NCBI RefSeq assembly: GCF_024223415.1
Contig: NZ_CP100500.1
Length of the DNA: 64,000 bases
Source of the DNA: Escherichia coli
Lineage (GTDB): Bacteria > Pseudomonadota > Gammaproteobacteria > Enterobacterales > Enterobacteriaceae
Direction: 5' to 3' (one strand)
Below, piece by piece: positions 5,157 to 15,776 of this stretch. The notes under the pieces are model-generated. The model saw nothing but the letters and a program-made list of their open reading frames with translations, searched no databases and was not told where the DNA came from. The position numbers and the translations under genes are program-made. Within the stretch, counting starts at the first letter, position 1. The number at the start of each line of letters is the position of its first letter.

Positions 5157-5762
5157 GTGGCTATTCCGTATGAACCATACGGAGATTTAACCATGACCTA
5201 CAAATACAACCCCTTCTGGCAGCAACGTATTCGTGAGACGGTGCGGCACGCACTGAATGTTCATCCCCGCCTGACGGCATTGCGGGTTGACCTGCGTTTC
5301 CCGGATGTACCGGCAGCAACGGACGCAGCTGTGATATCCCGCTTCATCAATGCCCTGAAAGCCCGAATCGACGCTTACCAGAAACGTAAGCATCGGGAAG
5401 GTAAACGCGTGCATCCCACCACCCTGCATTACGTCTGGGCCCGGGAGTTTGGGGAGTGCAAAGGTAAAAAACACTATCACCTGATGCTGCTGGTTAACCG
5501 GGATACCTGGTGTCGTGCCGGTGATTACCGTGCTCCGGGATCACTGGCCGGGATGATTAAACAGGCGTGGTGCAGTGCCCTGGGAGTGGATGTCGGGTGC
5601 CATGCCACGCTGGTGCATTTTCCGGCCTGGCCGGCGGTGTGGCTGGAACGCGATGATGACACTGGCTTTCAGCAGGTGCTGGAACGTGCTGACTATCTGG
5701 CGAAGGAACATACCAAAGCTCACTGCACCGGTGAGCGCAATTTTGGCTGTAGCCGGAGTTGA
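5157..5762 (+). CDS. HUH-type rolling-circle Rep-like protein (inovirus Gp2 / YagK-YfjJ-like family)
   Basis: 201-aa ORF with the motif KKHYHLMLLV (His-hydrophobic-His) and candidate Tyr motifs; family assignment from memory, not searched. Confidence 0.55.
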   Translation: MAIPYEPYGDLTMTYKYNPFWQQRIRETVRHALNVHPRLTALRVDLRFPDVPAATDAAVISRFINALKARIDAYQKRKHREGKRVHPTTLHYVWAREFGECKGKKHYHLMLLVNRDTWCRAGDYRAPGSLAGMIKQAWCSALGVDVGCHATLVHFPAWPAVWLERDDDTGFQQVLERADYLAKEHTKAHCTGERNFGCSRS

Positions 5763-6015
5763 GCACGACTGGCGCGCCAATATCCGGCAAACCAAAAGTA
5801 TGGGTTGTTGTCTGGCGGCAACGATGTATCCACTCGCCCACTGACTGTTTTTTACGTCAGTGTTCCATTGTGTGACAACCACAGTGCTGTAACAGCAACC
5901 AGCCTGCTTTACCCAAACTCCAGTCCAGATTTTAACTGAACCGCCATTCACACCCTGACCACGCTGCCCGTACCGGGACGGCTGTTGCCTGCGTGTCGTC
6001 TGGCGGCTGAGGAAT

Positions 6016-6423
6016 ATGACTATGTACGCAAAATCCTTTATCGCTCTTGATGGCAACGGACGTCTGACGGGCGCCCGTACTGCACAGGCCGCACCTTATG
6101 CTAACTACACCTGCCACTTGTGTGGCAGTGCACTCAGATACCATCCGCAATACGACACTGAACTTCCCTGGTTTGAACACACTGACGACAGGCTGACAGA
6201 GCACGGTCAACAGTGCCCTTATGTCAGGCCGGAGCGCAGAGAAATACAGTTGATTAAACGTCTGCAGCAATTCGTACCGGATGCCTTACCCGTGGTGCGT
6301 AAAGCCAGCTGGCACTGCAGACAATGTCACCACGATTATTATGGGGAGCGGTACTGCACACACTGCCAGACCGGAGGATTCAGTATTCCCCGGACAACTC
6401 AGGAGGAAATATGCGAATTCTGA
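6016..6423 (+). CDS. Cys-rich hypothetical protein A (putative double zinc-ribbon)
   Basis: 135-aa ORF; conserved pattern CxxC...PWFEH...C...CxxC...DYxGExxCxxC shared with the next ORF. Confidence 0.55.
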   Translation: MTMYAKSFIALDGNGRLTGARTAQAAPYANYTCHLCGSALRYHPQYDTELPWFEHTDDRLTEHGQQCPYVRPERREIQLIKRLQQFVPDALPVVRKASWHCRQCHHDYYGERYCTHCQTGGFSIPRTTQEEICEF

Positions 6424-6821
6424 ACTGTTATATGGCGAATGACAGCAAAGGCCATTTTGTTACGGCGAAAGAAGCAGCGAAGCACAACCGCCAGGACGTT
6501 TTGTGCTGTGTGTCCTGTGGATGCCCGTTAACACTTCAGCGGGGCAATGACGGACAACCACCGTGGTTTGAACATGACCAGATGACTGTCGCTGAGAAAA
6601 TCCTGCTGCGATGCACCTGGCTTGACCCGGCAGAGAAAGAGGCCCGTCGTTTGCATCTGCAGGGTATGACGGTTCCGGATTATACGGTGAAGGTGAGAAA
6701 GTGGTTTTGTGTGATGTGTGACGAAGATTATGAAGGAGAAAAGTGCTGCCCGCGTTGTGGTACCGGGGTATACAGCAGGGAGGGGGGGCTGCAGGAAGGC
6801 AACTGGAAGGATAGGAACTGA
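6411..6821 (+). CDS. Cys-rich hypothetical protein B, paralogue of A, translationally coupled
   Basis: ATG at 6411 lies just upstream of the stop of the previous ORF (6421-6423); same Cys/PWFEH pattern. Confidence 0.55.
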   Translation: MRILNCYMANDSKGHFVTAKEAAKHNRQDVLCCVSCGCPLTLQRGNDGQPPWFEHDQMTVAEKILLRCTWLDPAEKEARRLHLQGMTVPDYTVKVRKWFCVMCDEDYEGEKCCPRCGTGVYSREGGLQEGNWKDRN

Positions 6822-7024: not shown

Positions 7025-8757
7025 AAAAGTGGTTCTTCCGCAACCTGGGTGGAAGAAAATGGATGAAACTTTCTGGCGAACAAGGATCTAAGCTGTTTTA
7101 AGTTATGGGCAACGCAATGCACTCTCTTAAGACACTTCTACAGTTACCTTGCGGATGGCGATGCAGTCGACAAATTATTAGCTCTGACGGTATAACCCTC
7201 CATCTCCACGGAAAACGCAAAACAGCACAATGTCCTGAATGCTTTAAGCGTAGCGACTCTGTTCATAGTTGTCGTCGGCGCCGGATACAGCATCTACCCT
7301 GCTCAGGGCAGACGCTATGGCTTGTATTTTCCGTCCGCCACTGGTACTGCCGTAACCCGGCTTGTTCACGTAAAATTTTTGCCGAGTCGCTTGCTCCCTT
7401 CGCCGGTTCACACCAGCAGTCTTCACAGGCGTTACAAAATTTACAACGTCAACTGGGATTAATAGCTGGAGGTGAGGCTGGAAAACGGGCTGCAACGGCA
7501 GCGGGTCTCCGTTGCAGTGCTGATACTCTTCTTCGCAGGGTATCAATACCCCGGAGACGAAACAGTCAGGCGCGCCTCATGTCGGTATTGATGAGTGGGC
7601 GTGGCATCGGGGCCACTGCTGCGGTATGTTAATAGTCAATCTTGATACTCACCGTCCCCTCGTCCTGCTTCCCGGCCGTGATCAGCGTACGCTGGCGACC
7701 TGGTTCAGAAAATATCCGGAAATACAGGTTGTCTCGCGTGATCGCAGTGGAGTCTATGCGACAGCAGCACGTGAAGGTGCACCTCAGGCCAGACAGGTGG
7801 CCGATCGATGGCACCTGCTAAAAAATATTGGTGATGAGCCTGAACGAATGATGTACAGACATATGCCTCTGATACGTCTTGTTGTCAGAGAGTTATCACT
7901 GAAGAAATCACCTGAGCCAGAAATATCTGTGCCTGTAGCATCGCTCCGTCGTCTGGAACGCCTTAAACAGCACATCCGCAAAAAACGGCATCAGCGTTGG
8001 ACAGAGGTTATGGCCCTGCATAACAAGGGATGTAGTTTCAGGGAAATATCCCGTATTACAGGCCTGTCGCGAGTGACAGTCAGTCGCTGGGTGGGTTCAG
8101 GAACATTCCCTGAAATGTCAACTAGGCCTCCAAAGCGAGGGCTTCTGGACCCATGGAGGGAGTGGTTAAAAGAGCAACGAGAATGTGGTAATTATAACTC
8201 CGGCCGGATATGGCGGGAAATGGTGGCCAGGGGGGTTACAGGCAGTGAAACCATCGTCAGGGATGCTGTTGCCAAATGGCGTAAAGGCTGGATCCCACCG
8301 GTTACTACTGCCGCAAGACTTCCTTCAGTGTCCCGGGTAAGCCGCTGGTTGATGCCCTGGAGAATAATCAGGGGTGAAGAAAATTATGCTTTCCGATTTA
8401 TTAGTCTGATGTGTGAAAAAGAACCGGAGTTGAAAATAGCGCAGCAACTGGTACTCGAGTTCTACCGTATTCTGAAAACCTAAAATAAATCACAGCTAAG
8501 CAGCTGGTTCACTCGGGTCCACGAAAGCGGCTCAGCAGAACTTCGGTGCGTAGCTGCGGGGATGGAAGCTGATGCTGCGGCTATATGTGAGGCAATCAGC
8601 AGTCGCTGGAGTACTGGTGTTGTCGAAGGTCATGTAAATCGCCTGAAGGTGCTGATACGCCAGATGTATGGTCGAGCCGGACTTGAACTACTTAGGCGGA
8701 GGGTAATGAGTCCACTGGCATGAAAATCTTCACCCAGGTTGCGGAAGAGCCACTTTT
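7025..8757 (+). mobile_element. ISL3-family insertion sequence with imperfect terminal inverted repeats, decayed
   Basis: Left end aaaagtggttcttccgcaacctgggtg at about 7025-7051 and its near-perfect reverse complement at about 8731-8757; encloses an ISL3-type transposase. Confidence 0.7.
7105..8722 (+). pseudogene. ISL3-family transposase, disrupted by a frameshift near 7588 and an in-frame TAA at 8481-8483
   Basis: N-terminal zinc-finger region (CPECF...), ...IDEWAWHRGHCCGMLIVNLDTHRPL readable only after a frame change, then ...VVEGHVNRLKVLIRQMYGRAGLELLRRRV continues in frame after the stop. Confidence 0.75.
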
Positions 8758-8766
8758 GCACTGTTC

Positions 8767-9095
8767 GTGACAGTATGGCCTTTATGTACTCACTTTGTTA
8801 CCGGTAGCTGGATCATCACTACCGTGCTGCAAATGGTGGTGAACAGCATCAATTGTGGAATGAATGTTGCCGAAGCGACCAATGCGCCTCGTTTCCACTA
8901 TCAGTGGTTGCCGGACGAGCTGCGTGTTGAAAAGGGTTTAGTCCGGATACGCTCAAGCTGCTGGATGCAAAAGGTCAGAAAGTGGCGCTGAATGAGGCGA
9001 TGGGCAGCACGCAAAGCATTATGGTTGGGTCGGATGGTGAGTTGTACGGCGCATCCGACTCGCGCTTGGTGGATGATTTAACGGCGGGGTATTAA
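8767..9095 (+). pseudogene. ggt: gamma-glutamyltranspeptidase C-terminal fragment, frameshifted in an A-run near 8935
   Basis: GSWIITTVLQMVVNSI...NAPRFHYQWLPDELRVEKG then, after a 1-nt frame change, FSPDTLKLLDAKGQKVALNEAMGSTQSIMVGSDGELYGASDSRLVDDLTAGY; starts directly at the ISL3 right end. Confidence 0.7.
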
Positions 9096-9134
9096 TTGAC
9101 ATCCCCCGGCGCAATGTGCCGGGGGATAATGGTT

Positions 9135-10169
9135 TTATGCGGTCAATAATCGTCCGGGATTATCGATACAGAGTTTTTTGAGGATCGTTTTATCGACGCC
9201 GCGCTCCGCCAGATAGGCCAGAAAAACATCTGGAACAAATCCCCAGCCATTACCGCCATTTTTAGCCCACATTTGTTTAAGGAAGACATCGTGGCTGAGA
9301 ACAAGCTGATCGGCGTATCCCAACTCAATGAGATGAGCGACGGCATCGGCAGTCTCCTGCACCCCTGGCGCTATTCCCTCTTTCGGGAAGGTAATGTCTA
9401 GGCCAATCATGTCGAATTCCAGCCAGACACCTTTATCAAGCATTTTCCGCTGATACGCCACGTCTTTTCCTGACGGATCCGAGTGTGCGAGAGAGACTTT
9501 ATTTGGCGAGACGCCCATTTCACCTAACACAATGTCGAGTACTTCATCACCGCGACGAAGCCAGCCCGGCATGTGAATATTCATCGCCACATGAGGATTG
9601 TTAATCTGTGCCAGCGAGGCAGCCCGCAAGCTGTTATGCTCGGCTTCGGTAAATGTCGGTGAAACACCTATTTCACCGATCATTCCGGCACGAATATCCG
9701 TATCGCCAATCCCTTGATTCAATTCTTTATCGATCGTTGTCGCCAGTTCATCAACCGTTTTATGAATTCTCTGGCTTTCAAATTTTTCCAGGTAGGGACC
9801 GGAGGAAGCAACAATATTCAGACCTGTTTTTAATGCGACTTCTCGTAATGCCTGCGCATCTCGTCCGATAGACTCAGACCCTGTGGCATCAATAATGGTG
9901 CGACCACCGAGCGAGATAAAGTTATTGATTTCGAAGATCACATCTTCAATAGGTTTGCGGTCCATATTATCAGCGCAGCAATAAGGATCGTGTTTTAATG
10001 CCCACTGGATTTCTGCCGTGACTTTTTTATCAACAAGCCGTTGTGAAAAAGGATAGCAAGGAGCATCCACAACAGAGGAAAGATCGTTGAACAGATGTTC
10101 ATGAGGAAGTGTTAGCCCCATATCTTCACGGGCGACGGGGCCCGTCACAGTTTGTAGATAATCTTTCAT
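9135..10169 (-). CDS. phosphotriesterase-family metal-dependent hydrolase (Php-like, TIM-barrel amidohydrolase; possible lactonase)
   Basis: 344 aa; N-terminal GLTLPHEHL metal-binding motif characteristic of the PTE family. Confidence 0.8.
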   Translation of the reverse strand: MKDYLQTVTGPVAREDMGLTLPHEHLFNDLSSVVDAPCYPFSQRLVDKKVTAEIQWALKHDPYCCADNMDRKPIEDVIFEINNFISLGGRTIIDATGSESIGRDAQALREVALKTGLNIVASSGPYLEKFESQRIHKTVDELATTIDKELNQGIGDTDIRAGMIGEIGVSPTFTEAEHNSLRAASLAQINNPHVAMNIHMPGWLRRGDEVLDIVLGEMGVSPNKVSLAHSDPSGKDVAYQRKMLDKGVWLEFDMIGLDITFPKEGIAPGVQETADAVAHLIELGYADQLVLSHDVFLKQMWAKNGGNGWGFVPDVFLAYLAERGVDKTILKKLCIDNPGRLLTA

Positions 10170-10171
10170 GA

Positions 10172-11137
10172 TTATACCTCCATTTTCTTCATTGTTTTCG
10201 AGGTTCTGTATTCCGGAATAGTGGTAACAATTGCACCGACCAGTGCAAACAGTGTTCCGATGATCGTGACCAGATAAACGCTATTGCCCAGCGATGGAAT
10301 TAATACGTCAATCAATACTGATCCCAGTAACTGGCCCGCCGTTGAAGCAACCCCCAGCATCAGTAACCCCAGACCTCTGACCAAAATGGCCATTAAACCG
10401 ATAGACATTAGTCCAAGCGGGCCGCCAAGATACATCCACCAGACATCTGGTAATTGAACAGTGACGTGCCCTAATGCGACACGAATAGCAAGCGCTGTGC
10501 CTAAAACACAAAATCCAACGATGAAATTCTAGGTGATTGAAACCAGCATGGATCCCGTAGCTTCAGCTACTTTTGCATTTCCAGCGGGCTGCCATCCTGC
10601 AAGCAAACCAGCTAAGAACGGAAGAATGGCAAGTAAGATGAAAGAGGTAGAATGCCACTGAGGTGACACAACAAAAATCGTAGCAATAACCGCAAATAAT
10701 GCACCGATGATGCAATAAGGGGTAAAGTATTTTTTCTCGTCGACACCGATACCAAAGCGATCGCAAAGTAAACCAGACAGCAATAGCGCGGAGATCAGTG
10801 CGGTTTGAAACGTTGCGACCCCGAGTGCGCTGGCTGATGCGCCTTCAGAAAATACCACCATCGCTCCACAGAGACCGGCAAACCAGTTCCAGAGAGGAAC
10901 TTTTCGGTTTTTAATCAGAGAAGGAATTGCCGCAAATTGTTGCCGGGTTTCTTTTCGCGCCATAATAATAAAAAACATCACGACTAAACCACTGGCAAAG
11001 GAGATAACTGCGCATGCATTACCATCCTGTAACCAGTGACCTAATTGACCATTCACCGCTGATTGCATAGGGGAGAGCATACCCGCAAGAATCGTGGCAA
11101 GCATCCATAAGGGAGTTGAGTACTTATTCTTTTTCAT
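10172..11137 (-). pseudogene. DMT-superfamily (DUF606/YdcZ-like) membrane transporter interrupted by an in-frame amber codon at 10529-10531
   Basis: ORFs 10529..11137 and 10172..10435 are in the same frame; the sequence between them encodes hydrophobic helix-like residues; the single TAG (plus-strand cta) separates them. Confidence 0.7.
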
Positions 11138-11193: not shown

Positions 11194-11952
11194 TTATCTT
11201 GCAATATGAGTCAGTATATTTACCCACAACGCGGTATAGAACGGCCAGGACATAAACTGCTGTGTACCCCAGTGCGGTGAACAGTCACTCATAAAGCAGG
11301 CTATTTTCCCGTTGTGATAGTTACCAAAGACCAGTAATGGAGCGTTGTTTATTGTTAATACCACCTCAGCATTTTCTTTAGCGATCGCCCGGTTATAACC
11401 TAGGAAAAAAGGATATTCAGAGAACCCTTTAATAACTGGATGTTCAGGTTGTGATGGCTGTGCAATAACACCCTCTGGTTTTTCGACACGATCGTCACCA
11501 TCTAACATCGTAACCGGGAGCACATCAGCCAGAACTGTATTTTTATAATTGGCTTTTGCTTCAATTCCCATGAATGAGAGATAGCCGCCAATCATCAATA
11601 ACCCACCACCGTTATTCACATATTCTTTAATCAGTTCGAGAGCGTTTGGTTTTATGCGAAGCTGATAAAAAGTATCATTTTGTAGCAGGAAAGTATTACT
11701 ACCAATATCACTAATAACGATGGCATCATATTGTTCTAACTGTGCCACATCTTCAGGGAAGGCAATTTGTACCGTATGTGCTGGCATATAGGTGACATCT
11801 ACCTGACTATTTTTCAGACACTGGAGTAACCAGGTCGCACCTTCTTCATATTTACTTGAGGTAAAACTGTCATATCCTTTTGAATGAATCATATGAATAT
11901 GCCAGGATTCCCCAATAAAGAGCACTTTTAGTGATTTTTTGGTGTTATTCAT
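11194..11952 (-). CDS. ThuA-like / class I glutamine-amidotransferase-like domain protein
   Basis: 252-aa ORF; fold assignment from sequence impression only. Confidence 0.45.
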   Translation of the reverse strand: MNNTKKSLKVLFIGESWHIHMIHSKGYDSFTSSKYEEGATWLLQCLKNSQVDVTYMPAHTVQIAFPEDVAQLEQYDAIVISDIGSNTFLLQNDTFYQLRIKPNALELIKEYVNNGGGLLMIGGYLSFMGIEAKANYKNTVLADVLPVTMLDGDDRVEKPEGVIAQPSQPEHPVIKGFSEYPFFLGYNRAIAKENAEVVLTINNAPLLVFGNYHNGKIACFMSDCSPHWGTQQFMSWPFYTALWVNILTHIAR

Positions 11953-11965
11953 TCTCTGTCCCTTC

Positions 11966-13180
11966 TTAATGCGTAAAAATAGTTTGCTGATAATGTATAC
12001 TCTGAATTCGATGTATCACAGATTCATGTTCAGGCATGTCGGAAGCATTGCTTGTCTCCACCGCTAGGGATGCAAAGGCGCTGGCATAACACAGTGCTGA
12101 TTCCAGTGATTTTCCTTTCGCAAGTCCTGATGCCAGAGAGCCGTTAAACGCATCCCCGGCTCCTGCCGTATTTTTAACGACCGCTGGAAACGCTGGCGAA
12201 TGAATGAATTTTTTGCCATCAAATGCGAGCGAGCCCTTGCTACCGAGCGTGATAACCGTGTTTTTTACCCCTTTATTGTGGATAGCTTCTGCAGCTCGTT
12301 TAGCTGATTCAAGATCGTGTACGTCTATGCCGGACAGTAAACCAGCTTCTGTTTCATTGGGGGTGATATAATCAACATCCTGAATAAGTTCGTTGACGAT
12401 ATCATTATAGGGTGCCGGGTTAATAATGACCGGGATACTGTTTTTTTGCGCCAATGTGATCGCTTGTTGCAGAGCGGTATAATTTGTTTCGAGCTGCAGA
12501 AGTATGACATCAGAATTAATAATCGCTTCTTTCTGAATAGTTATTTCATCGGACGACATTGTCATGTTGGCACCGGGATAGATCGCAATAACATTATCGC
12601 CAGTACCTTCATTAACAAGGATCGTGGCAGTTCCGGTTTGCGTTTCTTTCGTTTGATAAATTATACTTTTATAAATCTTAGACGAATTCATAAAGTTGAT
12701 CGCATAATCACTAAAGTGATCTGTACCTACTTTTGTTATGAAATAAACATCAGTATCGGCAAAGCTTGCTGCCAGCGCCTGGTTACAGCCTTTTCCCCCC
12801 GGTGAAAATATAAAATTACTTGCCAGAAGCGATTCTCCGATAGTGGGAAGCCTCGGCAAATAACTGATGATATCAACATTAAACGAACCAATAACGCATA
12901 CTTGACTTTTCATAGTTGAGTGGCCTTTTTTTATTCCCTGGGCTGTATCATAATTTTCAAGCGCATAAGCGATTTCATTTTTCGCAATAGTATCAAGCGA
13001 GTCTAGGACGATAAAAGCACCGCCATGACATCGAGTCAGATAGCCAAGCCTGGCAAGTTCATTAAGATCTGAACGAATAGTTTCTTTCGTTACATTGAGG
13101 CTATTGGACAGATCGGATACTTTTACAGAACCGAATTTACTGAGTCGTTTCAATATTTCATGATGGCGTTCAAATTTCAT
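11966..13180 (-). CDS. fusion protein: N-terminal DeoR-type HTH plus PfkB/ribokinase-family carbohydrate kinase
   Basis: N-terminus HHEILKRLSKFGSVKVSDLSNSLNVTKETIRSDLNELARLGYL (DeoR HTH); kinase motifs GGKGCNQA and NTAGAGDAFNGSLASGL. Confidence 0.7.
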   Translation of the reverse strand: MKFERHHEILKRLSKFGSVKVSDLSNSLNVTKETIRSDLNELARLGYLTRCHGGAFIVLDSLDTIAKNEIAYALENYDTAQGIKKGHSTMKSQVCVIGSFNVDIISYLPRLPTIGESLLASNFIFSPGGKGCNQALAASFADTDVYFITKVGTDHFSDYAINFMNSSKIYKSIIYQTKETQTGTATILVNEGTGDNVIAIYPGANMTMSSDEITIQKEAIINSDVILLQLETNYTALQQAITLAQKNSIPVIINPAPYNDIVNELIQDVDYITPNETEAGLLSGIDVHDLESAKRAAEAIHNKGVKNTVITLGSKGSLAFDGKKFIHSPAFPAVVKNTAGAGDAFNGSLASGLAKGKSLESALCYASAFASLAVETSNASDMPEHESVIHRIQSIHYQQTIFTH

Positions 13181-13287
13181 GCTTCACCTCACTTCAGTTA
13201 CGTTAATATCTATCGATGTATATTGATGTGATAATCACCATAAAGTGGCGGGGAAAAGCAAAAAAAAGCAAAAATAGCCTGAGAAAA

Positions 13288-13850
13288 GGTAAGCGTTAAT
13301 GGAGAATCATATTGATGCTTATTTATTGGTGAGAACTACGTTCCATGGCAGGAGTTCATCAATACGGTTGGAAGGTTATTCCGGCAGTACGCTCAGGATA
13401 TGGCGCAGATACGCTTCCGGATCAATGTCGTTCAGAAGGCAAGTGCCGATAAGCCCATACAACAGTGCACTGCGCTCGCCGCCGAAGAACATAAAGTTTT
13501 TATTTCCGAGACAGATGGCACAAAGGGCTTTTTCCGCGGCATTATGTCTGCCTCCGCCTGACCGTCAACACTGTAATAACAGAGTGCGCCCCACTGATTC
13601 AGTACACAGCTGAACCATTCTCCCAGTCTGGATTTTTGGATAGCGTGGCATTTTTCTCCACCATGCATGCAGTGAGTCCAGTAACAGTTTGCTCTTCTTC
13701 TGCCTGACCACAAGATGTGCTGGACTGGTAAACGATGGGGATACCTGCTTACGCGAGAGCAATAAGTGGCTGGCCACAATTCTCGGTACAAAACTCTGCT
13801 GAATAGCAGCGATTTTCCCAGCGTGGTGCGTCGTTTTCATTTTACTGGTT
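13288..13850 (-). mobile_element. IS66-family remnant: terminal repeat (GTAAGCG at 13288) plus frameshifted 3' part of a transposase gene
   Basis: Minus-strand translation near 13327-13380 gives PSNRIDELLPWNVVLTNK*, resembling the IS66 transposase C-terminus; upstream frames are broken. Confidence 0.6.
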
Positions 13851-15230
13851 CTAAGTTAACAATTATCTGTTCACTAATGACTACTCTAAAAACTTGTATC
13901 AGGACTATCACTTATTTAAGTGATATTGGTTGTCTGGAGATTCAGGGGGCCAGTCTATAAACTTTTTACAAAAGGATGAATGCAGAAGGTTACTCTAATG
14001 GCCAGAGTGATGACAATGATGGTCAGACGTTGACCTGCAGAAACTGCATTTTAATTGGTCTATAAAGTCTGCAAGAGGAATCAGGGTCAGATCAGTGAGT
14101 CTTATCGCGGCCCGAAGCTATGACTGAAAGAAGGCTGGATACAGAATTGCAACAATTTGGCAATGTCAGAACACAGAAGCTTTGCAAGCAGGTGAAAGGT
14201 TATGTCTAGCAAAAGGAGTATATCAGAATACATCTACTGATGTACAAAACACAACAATAGCTTCATGATATATAAATACGTGATGACGAGTGGTACTCCG
14301 CATGGTTATTTAACTTCTCAGCACCACTAATGATCCTGAGCAACTTCGTATTTGGGCCATTGCCATGGAGTAGAAAGCTGTGTCTGAGAATGCAGAATTT
14401 GAGAAAAGAATTCGCTTTCTTGGAGAGCTTCTGAAAATGGCACGCTAACAACGTTTTGTTAAAAAATGTGAATCACTTGCCGGGGCTGCATTTTCTATTC
14501 GAGGAGAATGTTGACGTAGATATTACAGAAATCTCAGCGCATCAGGATAAACTGCTACCTTAGGTCAACCACCAAAAGAAAATACAATACGTCCAGTTTG
14601 TATGCCTTTAATAACACATCTTCTAAATGTTGAAGAATTATCCCGCCTGCTGAAGAACGTTGCTCTGAGTGTGATAAACCTTTTTATTCTTGATGATGTC
14701 AGCGAGAAGATGGAATATATCCCCGACTGGGTCGTGGTTACCCGGTTAAACATCTGGTGGCGCTAATAAATCTGGCAAGTCACATTCTGTTGAATGCTGT
14801 GACAGTGCCTTACCGAGAGAGCGAAATTGTGGTGTTCTAGTGCATAGTCGCCACCATTCCGGATAATTCTATTGCGTTGTTTTACAAGTTCTTTTACAGC
14901 GCAGATCTGTTGCTGACGTTGAATCAATAGCCTGGATTTCAGAACACAATGCCCGTTTGCTGGTTGGTCCGGCAGTAGCATTAATTCATTATCTGAATGA
15001 AATGTGTCAATCCACAGAAACCGCTGTCAATGACACATTTTGTCGGACGTTAACACGAGAAAGTCTGGCTATTCCGTAATGCCATCTTATTTCGTAATGG
15101 ATTGAGAATGCTGGATTTTTAATTATATTACGCGCAGTATTAATCGCGTAAATGTTTTGCGGTCAGCAACGGTGGGGGATCCATTGTTCTGTTCAATGAA
15201 TACCATCATACATTTGAATCAGGAGTCGGT

Positions 15231-15776
15231 ATGATGATTTTGGTGACGGGGGGCGCACGGAGCGGGAAGAGTCGCCACGCAGAGGCGCTTATTGGGGACT
15301 CTTCACAGGTTCTGTATATCGCTACCTCGCAAATCCTTGATGATGAGATGGCTGCACGGATAGAACATCATCGGCAAGGCCGCCCGGAGCACTGGCGCAC
15401 AGTGGAGCGCTGGCAACATCTTGATGAATTAATTCATGCAGACATTAACCCGAATGAGGTTGTGTTGCTGGAATGCGTTACCACAATGGTGACTAATCTG
15501 TTGTTTGATTATGGCGGCGATAAAGACCCTGATGAATGGGATTATCAGGCGATGGAACAGGCGATTAATGCTGAGATTCAGTCGTTGATTGCTGCCTGCC
15601 AACGTTGCCCCGCAAAGGTTGTATTAGTGACTAACGAAGTGGGAATGGGGATTGTGCCGGAGAGTCGTCTGGCACGACATTTTCGTGATATTGCCGGGCG
15701 GGTAAATCAGCAGTTGGCCGCTGCGGCAAATGAAGTATGGCTGGTGGTTTCGGGTATTGGAGTAAAAATCAAATGA
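15231..15776 (+). CDS. cobU: adenosylcobinamide kinase / adenosylcobinamide-phosphate guanylyltransferase
   Basis: 181 aa, [19 protein letters not shown]-loop; first gene of cobU-cobS-cobT. Confidence 0.95.

Follow-up and report, generated by a model that had tools for sequence, protein, structure and literature searches.

We analyzed rikA, a single open reading frame (ORF) in a 64,000-nucleotide stretch of Escherichia coli DNA (RefSeq contig NZ_CP100500.1; hereafter the window, meaning the whole stretch). Its product, RikA, joins a DeoR-type helix-turn-helix (HTH) to a PfkB-family sugar kinase. Domain and fold comparisons confirmed that the predicted protein is an active-type ribokinase with a DeoR-type winged HTH (wHTH) at its N-terminus, the kinase standing in place of the DeoRC sensor. 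We consider it probable, at roughly 60%, that RikA is a bifunctional, autoregulating trigger enzyme. This model is based on selection acting on the HTH, the strong Shine-Dalgarno (SD) sequence at the first methionine (M1), the first place of the gene in operons that lack another regulator, and the operator-like DNA upstream of it.

The finding itself is already known, since the orthologue has been described and the fusion architecture is in print; the protein is named and partly characterized. In the newest RefSeq annotation the E. coli gene is called rikA, and RikA of Salmonella enterica (STM3547) is the subject of a study by McCormick, Jabbar and Escalante-Semerena (Mol Microbiol 2026; PMC13432705). 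In that study RikA sufficed by itself for growth on ribose, the purified enzyme phosphorylated ribose with kinetics resembling RbsK and DeoK, and D343 proved necessary for its function (PMC13432705). The same authors noted a DeoR-type domain at residues 2-57 via PROSITE, as well as the conservation of the STM3547-3550 cluster and the possibility that ribose is an off-target substrate (PMC13432705). In our literature search STM3547 appeared only in this 2026 paper, and no paper on fusions of PfkB, DeoR and HTH was found.

Domain architecture of RikA

The gene and its parts, in coordinates of the window, are as follows.

11966..13180, minus strand: rikA, 404 aa (WP_000667430.1), a single ATG-started frame encoding a DeoR-type wHTH, a linker and a PfkB ribokinase domain
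13013..13168, minus strand: HTH_DeoR domain, aa 5-56 (Pfam PF08220, 56.4 bits, cut-off 21, E 2.6e-15)
12914..13012, minus strand: inter-domain linker, aa 57-89, variable in length and sequence and predicted to be disordered
12035..12907, minus strand: PfkB ribokinase-like domain, aa 92-382 (Pfam PF00294, 219.3 bits, cut-off 25.8)
12794-12799, minus strand: GG motif, G128-G129, read directly, corresponding to RbsK G41-G42
12152-12163, minus strand: GAGD motif, residues 340-343, read directly within NTAGAGD, with catalytic D343 corresponding to RbsK D255

The domain search bears out an earlier note on this DNA, which had described an N-terminal DeoR-like HTH of about 55 aa followed by a complete ribokinase-like kinase, with GG and GAGD motifs, in exchange for the usual DeoR sugar-binding domain. 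Pfam gave no match in RikA to the DeoRC sensor domain (PF00455), and PfkB occupies that position; RikA should for this reason not be classed with the canonical DeoR-family regulators. The best named match of the HTH is AgaR (NCBIfam NF040755, aa 3-61). The NCBIfam ribokinase equivalog TIGR02152 is the best match at 284.2 bits, narrowly under its cut-off of 299.65, and strict equivalence to RbsK is therefore not claimed.

In the AlphaFold2 model (mean predicted local distance difference test, pLDDT, 86.8) the protein falls into three parts, a winged helix at residues 2-56, the linker and a confidently modeled kinase. Predicted helices (H) and strands (E) of the wHTH run H2-16, E18-20, H21-27, H32-44, E49-51 and E54-56 at pLDDT 77-92, with linker residues 61-88 below 50. 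Foldseek placed the modeled kinase domain on RbsK (PDB 1RKD) with a TM score of 0.93 and a root-mean-square deviation of 1.8 A. Further support for an active-type kinase is provided by the alignment, where all seven polar ribose-contact or catalytic residues of RbsK (N14, D16, G42, K43, N46, E143 and D255) are identical in RikA (N101, D103, G129, K130, N133, E231 and D343), and the GG and catalytic-Asp motifs are invariant across the family. Neither by sequence nor by fold search did we find a solved structure with both HTH and kinase domains.

STM3547 is likewise 404 aa long and 80% identical to the E. coli protein (83% in S. bongori), with the same domain order, Met90 and D343. Kinase activity known from this 80%-identical Salmonella orthologue suggests that E. 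coli RikA would act as an ATP-dependent sugar kinase. The kinase domain of RbsK (PDB 1RKD/1GQT) is about 36% identical to that of RikA and has the same fold, but RbsK has no N-terminal HTH and is controlled by a separate LacI-type repressor, RbsR. Conversely, the DeoR-family repressors AgaR, GlpR, DeoR, FucR and SrlR have an N-terminal HTH_DeoR as in RikA and, unlike RikA, a C-terminal DeoRC domain. DeoR-family repressors typically control sugar catabolic operons.

Selection on the HTH and the start of translation

The ratio of non-synonymous to synonymous substitution (dN/dS) for codons 2-57 was 0.08-0.29 over six orthologue pairs (Nei-Gojobori), and the proportion of non-synonymous differences (pN) in the HTH was 0.10-0.15 among the closer pairs, close to the non-synonymous divergence of the kinase domain. 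Among 23 close relatives, mean pairwise identity reached 0.52 in the HTH and 0.58 in the kinase, as against 0.23 in the linker; a set of 21 more distant fusions gave 0.38, 0.40 and 0.09, respectively. Ten HTH residues are invariant (R5, E33, T34, R36, D38, L39, R50, G53, G54 and A55), all at DeoR-signature positions, and a PROSITE-style pattern of that signature matches 22 of the 23 close relatives. These comparisons say that the HTH is, as far as its evolution can tell, a living and selected part of RikA and probably not a relic. Catalytic and DNA-binding-type domains are found in one polypeptide with both under selection, which is a feature of trigger enzymes.

Two candidate starts bear on whether the HTH is made.

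13184..13190, minus strand: SD sequence GAGGTGA, ending 3 nt 5' of the M1 ATG
12911..12913, minus strand: Met90 codon, aligning with the first residue of stand-alone ribokinases

The M1 SD is kept across genera as a near-consensus GTGAGGTGA or TGAGGTAA, 4-6 nt upstream of the start, a spacing that is optimal. Predicted anti-SD pairing at M1 amounts to -9.2 kcal/mol in the window; 11 of 13 loci fall between -6.9 and -9.5 kcal/mol, with weaker pairing in Acerihabitans (-5.7 kcal/mol) and Orbus (-4.5 kcal/mol). Before Met90 it ranges from -3.2 to -6.8 kcal/mol across loci, with -3.2/-3.4 in E. coli/Salmonella, a level matched or exceeded at 23-25% of the positions in the gene. Methionine is present at position 90 in 21 of the 23 close relatives (RikA and sister clades) and in 5 of 21 members of the wider fused family; a family-wide conservation of Met90 thus holds for the close clades and fails beyond them. 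A purine-rich AAGG/GAGG-like tract persists before Met90 in a linker that is otherwise free to vary. We rejected the idea that this tract is a conserved internal ribosome-binding site (RBS): it contains Arg codons AGA/AGG, but these AT-rich genes often use AGR, and 3-25% of background positions pair at least as well, so the signal is not supported as significant. A search of the HTH-coding region for an internal sigma-70 promoter that could give a kinase-only transcript found none at the detection threshold.

The published data are consistent with the internal start. Under the conditions used, a Salmonella construct with 278 bp of native upstream DNA gave only a C-terminally tagged product of ~35 kDa, which fits a Met90 start, and RikA(90-404) fully complemented growth on ribose (PMC13432705). 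The band was assigned by gel size and tryptic identification, and the authors state that RikA "appears to begin at Met90" without excluding a longer isoform under other conditions (PMC13432705). The same ~35 kDa band would be expected if the disordered linker were cut by proteases, or if full-length protein bound to DNA were pelleted when the lysate was cleared. Taken together, the SD at M1, the selection, the conservation and the pattern of Met90 indicate, as far as sequence can show, that M1 is the main start and Met90 at most a clade-specific addition, and they argue that full-length RikA is probably also made and matters.

Natural alleles of E. coli bear on the same question. Whether orthologues are fused or split, a point raised in the earlier note, is settled by the following position together with counts of records matching 60-nt probes centred on single-nucleotide polymorphisms (SNPs).

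12938..12940, minus strand: codon 81, CAG (Gln) in the window and TAG in a second E. coli allele (SNP at 12940, in the linker)

The fused state is ancestral and dominant (CAG81, 1,711 records) and the split form is a derived nonsense mutation (TAG81, 220 records, ~11% of E. coli carriers). In the TAG81 allele, which is ~1% diverged, the gene is divided into an 80-aa HTH ORF and a 315-aa kinase ORF from Met90; RefSeq lists it as a pseudogene with an internal stop. The kinase of this allele could be made only from Met90. Counted in the same way, the DMT transporter gene that lies third in the rikA operon has a nonsense codon, as in the window, in 599 records vs 1,428 records with an intact gene; the in-frame stop at DMT codon 203 (10529-10531) is polymorphic across complete E. 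coli genome records. From these counts at least ~1,100 genomes should hold a fused rikA together with an intact DMT gene, strain SK1144 being one example. In L094/L095, the one lineage with the split allele that was examined, an intact DMT gene accompanies the rikA stop, and the window has the reverse, an intact fusion and a DMT stop.

It is possible, though in our estimation unlikely, that two products are made by design, a full-length repressor-kinase and a Met90 kinase isoform that would account for most of the catalysis, with heterodimers that tune or poison DNA binding. Sigrell et al. are said to have reported in 1998 that PfkB ribokinases are dimers, which makes mixed dimers physically plausible. 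Met90 in 21 of 23 members of RikA and sister clades and the purine-rich tract kept before it are in line with this possibility, as is the combination of a strong, conserved M1 SD with a Met90 product seen experimentally (PMC13432705). Against it, the SD-like signal at Met90 is no better than background, Met90 is absent from most distant fusions, no consensus internal promoter was found, and regulation by heterodimers is a matter of pure inference. A specific form of this scheme, in which mixed dimers containing the Met90 isoform, begun at the ancestral ribokinase start, would strip the full-length, catalytically active repressor off DNA and both enzyme level and sugar would feed back on transcription, appears to us rather improbable. 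If the two-isoform reading were true, TAG81 would be a constitutively uncoupled natural variant.

We give distinctly less credit to the reading that only the kinase, RikA(90-404), is functional and that the 89 upstream codons are an annotation extension or the relic of a separate DeoR-type gene. The ~35 kDa product was the only one from the native-RBS construct and RikA(90-404) complements fully (PMC13432705), Met90 aligns with the start of stand-alone ribokinases and is conserved in the close relatives (21/23), and the TAG81 allele retains an intact kinase ORF startable only at Met90. However, a relic would not show dN/dS of 0.08-0.29, invariant DeoR residues and a frame that stays open down to 34% identity. 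Nor does this reading fit a near-consensus SD kept at M1 next to a weak one at Met90 in E. coli/Salmonella (-3.2/-3.4 kcal/mol) or the occurrence of Met90 in only 5 of 21 of the wider fused family, and the published start rests on a gel size and a tryptic identification that proteolysis or pellet loss would reproduce.

Upstream DNA, operon context and a model of autoregulation

Two elements stand out upstream of M1.

13227..13242, minus strand: 16-bp near-palindrome TATGGTGATTATCACA (tATGr-N6-TCACw), candidate operator or CRP-like site
13254..13269, minus strand: two T-rich direct repeats with a 10-bp period, GCTTTTTTTT GCTTTT, second candidate operator or bent/UP-like DNA

Each was found once in the 64-kb window, the near-palindrome lying ~10 bp downstream of the T-repeats, which are also denoted GCTTTTTTTTGCTTTT and have the version GTTTACTTCC-GTTT in the sister clade. 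Across 12 loci that represent all three cargo types described below, the 110 bp preceding M1 align with hardly any gaps. The phased G-TTT repeat is kept in 12 of 12 loci, those with other cargo included, and in 10 of the 12 loci for which upstream sequence was available the 16-mer sits at -62 to -68 relative to M1. Klebsiella and Citrobacter have a one-base variant of the 16-mer at the same place, and in Citrobacter sp. FP75 its sole match is at -185. The invariant columns of the alignment are the phased T-repeats and both halves of the 16-mer (ATG and TCAC). Paralogous HTH_DeoR-PfkB genes of other-cargo operons keep the same upstream architecture. The elements track the regulator gene and not the cargo, and hence look like what is expected of an autoregulatory operator.

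A canonical class II CRP site would be an imperfect reading of the 16-mer: its centre is ~43-46 bp upstream of a start placed by hand from a -10-like element, and not at -41.5, and its left half is kept as tATGr, not TGTGA. An IS66-family transposase remnant (~13289-13714, minus strand) ends ~108 bp upstream of rikA M1, with a GTAAGCG-type terminal sequence at ~13289. The only sigma-70-like match reading towards rikA (13335 to 13306) is within this remnant, and the end of the insertion sequence (IS) may thus supply an outward promoter.

Downstream of rikA the operon continues with three genes.

11194..11952, minus strand: GATase1_like (PF07090), second gene, orthologue of STM3548 (PDB 2GK3, 484 bits)
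10172..11137, minus strand: double YdcZ-type DMT transporter, third gene, inactivated in the window by the in-frame stop at 10529-10531
9135..10169, minus strand: phosphotriesterase (PTE)-family amidohydrolase, fourth gene, close relative of Proteus Pmi1525 (PDB 3RHG/4QSF, 582 bits)
9101..9127, no strand assigned: GC-rich hairpin with a perfect 12-bp stem, directly 3' of the PTE stop, probable operon terminator

At all loci examined, the fused gene opens a short transporter-containing operon without any other regulator. The cargo GATase1_like-DMT_YdcZ-PTE is found in E. coli, S. enterica, S. bongori, Klebsiella, Citrobacter, Budvicia, Providencia and Orbus with differing flanks; this travel of the cassette as a unit favors a self-contained regulator. 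The gene order rikA - GATase1_like - DMT - PTE of the window is shared by the loci compared with it (L083-L088, L090), that of STM3547 included. A second Salmonella version (L089, 6001-12123) carries a nucleoside hydrolase, a NupC-type transporter, an MFS transporter and an M20 peptidase, and the operons of Pectobacterium and Rahnella (L091, L092 6001-10238) a DHDPS-type aldolase, DUF386 and MFS. The version with a nucleoside hydrolase fits a genuine ribokinase role, at least in that branch.

From these data we infer DNA binding by RikA, the element that serves as operator, repression, the identity of the effector and the relation of the isoforms, as follows. Full-length RikA would be translated from M1 and would dimerize through the PfkB lid as ribokinases do, so placing the two HTHs of the dimer on a conserved operator that directly precedes the rikA promoter. 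The operator would be the near-palindrome at 13227-13242, the phased T-repeats at 13254-13269, or both. Binding would repress the four-gene cassette of rikA, GATase1_like, DMT transporter and PTE-family hydrolase. Upon binding of the sugar substrate (ribose or a ribose-like compound) to the kinase, the lid would close, the geometry of the HTHs would shift and the DNA would be released, leading to induction. A kinase-only Met90 product may coexist with the full-length form. That the enzyme could regulate its own operon had been suggested in the earlier note; the suggestion is plausible and is strengthened, indirectly, by the evidence given here, though it is in some tension with the Salmonella experiment.

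Several observations weigh against this model. The linker, across which lid closure would have to reach the HTHs, is disordered. Only the HTH-less product of ~35 kDa was recovered in Salmonella, and RikA(90-404) suffices on ribose. TAG81 uncouples the HTH from the kinase in ~11% of E. coli carriers, so some lineages can do without the fusion. The native 108 bp upstream of M1 gave no match to a consensus sigma-70 promoter that would place the elements relative to a transcription start. Finally, the 16-mer is similar to a CRP site (TGTGA-N6-TCACA), and CRP might bind there in place of RikA, and the T-repeats could be simply bent or UP-element DNA.

The HTH might also be functional without autoregulation, acting at other target loci (e.g. 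ribose or nucleoside genes) or in a role other than transcription, which we consider very unlikely. Selection on the HTH is silent on which DNA it binds, and such a role would leave the 16-mer as perhaps a CRP site and the T-repeats as perhaps structural. Yet the cassette moves as a unit with different flanks, and the upstream elements follow the fused gene and not the cargo.

Distribution of the fusion and its genomic setting

We found rikA in 1,987 of 5,426 complete E. coli genomes (37%), ~1,950 of them with a 1,215-bp gene at >=99% identity. Proteins of 397-412 aa with HTH_DeoR and PfkB, down to 46% identity, are present in many other genera, including Salmonella, Klebsiella, Citrobacter, Budvicia, Providencia, Hafnia, Pectobacterium, Brenneria, Rahnella, Pantoea, Tatumella, Orbus and Gilliamella. 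An exhaustive search of 1.84 billion cluster representatives extended this range: among the best 150, which we inspected, ~21 are full-length fusions (392-430 aa, at identities as low as 34%), and nearly all of the rest are stand-alone ribokinases of ~300-330 aa, many of which start exactly at the residue aligned with Met90. Both domains exceed the Pfam cut-offs in 10 of 10 distant representatives, and named distant fusions come from Citrobacter, Morganella, Vibrio, Aeromonas, Izhakiella and Salmonella; within Gammaproteobacteria the fusion is seen down to 34% identity. In databases the family goes under several inconsistent names (DeoR family regulator, ribokinase, PfkB kinase, HMP kinase).

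That a sequencing or assembly error deleted a stop between two genes, which the earlier note had named as a possible refutation, can be dismissed as having a negligible chance, because ~1,950 complete E. coli genomes carry the 1,215-bp ORF at >=99% identity and fused orthologues of 397-412 aa occur in many genera (Salmonella, Klebsiella, Citrobacter, Budvicia, Providencia, Orbus, Pectobacterium, Rahnella, Vibrio and Aeromonas among them), and no supporting evidence was found, the natural split allele TAG81 being a derived nonsense mutation. The description of such a protein as uncommon was overstated, given its presence in 37% of complete E. coli genomes, at least ~21 clusters at 50% identity, and a second fusion, YeiI, in E. 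coli K-12.

YeiI (b2160) is a wHTH-PfkB fusion with HTH_24 at 41 bits and PfkB at 231 bits. Unlike RikA it has an HTH of another family and a linker that is much shorter, and its kinase shares only 22% identity with that of RikA and is closer to pseudouridine kinase. YeiI is an independent fusion event. Its gene adjoins nupX and rihB (L093, 2701-6187), a nucleoside transporter and hydrolase, similar to the second Salmonella operon (L089), and this shared gene content suggests convergent HTH-kinase regulators for nucleoside or ribose salvage. YeiI is listed as a predicted transcription factor and is uncharacterized (PMC6055005, PMC9061257).

The surroundings of the E. coli cassette differ from those of the STM3547 locus: the E. 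coli copy is an IS-flanked island beside cobU, without an intact ggt neighbor and with the DMT nonsense codon. The neighbor of the Salmonella cassette is an intact ggt, and in E. coli a frameshifted ggt fragment (~8803-9095, plus strand) is located directly beside the PTE gene, so the island seems lifted from a ggt-adjacent site, taking a piece of ggt along. On the other side of the cassette from the IS66 remnant is an ISL3-family transposase pseudogene with an internal stop (7105-8723, plus strand), and the four-gene module thus has a dead IS element on either side. Just before cobUST (cobU at 15231) lie an IS4 fragment and a short 'cobalamin biosynthesis protein' remnant (~14739-15079); they are vestiges of the cbi section that the cob operon has lost, and they lie at the insertion point of the island. 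ORFs at 5157-6821 (plus strand) are annotated in matching genomes as inovirus Gp2 family and zinc-ribbon proteins, and some strains have IS100 (istAB) inserted between the two, in the same mobile-element-rich region.

The hairpin at 9101-9127 is the strongest terminator-like site in the region and, being symmetrical, could terminate transcription from either direction. As for the cargo proteins, STM1381 (PDB 3SOZ) is a paralogue of STM3548, and Pmi1525 is known only as a promiscuous metal-stimulated, metal-dependent esterase. A phospho-sugar lactone pathway, conceivable in view of the COG1735 lactonases, was considered and is not claimed, the NCBIfam phospho-furanose lactonase match being far too low at 41.5 vs a cut-off of 630.

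Biological meaning of the fusion

Enzyme-repressor fusions are well known as a class. In BirA, NadR and PutA as in the ROK repressors (Mlc, NagC and XylR), an HTH is combined with an enzyme or a sugar-kinase fold in which substrate binding controls DNA binding; the former are of other enzyme classes, and the ROK repressors have a different kinase fold whose catalysis has generally been lost. The RikA orthologue, unlike the ROK repressors, is a fully active kinase, and if the proposed model is true a PfkB example would join the trigger-enzyme class.

The published Met90 start leaves the HTH as a possible annotation artefact, whereas the comparative evidence points to an HTH that is translated and selected. 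If the model is wrong, the locus would be a third ribokinase with a vestigial leader. If it is true, RikA would be both an active sugar kinase and the one-component regulator of a mobile four-gene cassette, and this cassette regulator would be found in over a third of complete E. coli genomes as well as in Salmonella. The inconsistent names of the family ("DeoR regulator", "ribokinase" and "HMP kinase") would then be explained. Induction of the operon by the true substrate would also provide a handle on what the GATase1_like/DMT/PTE cassette metabolizes.

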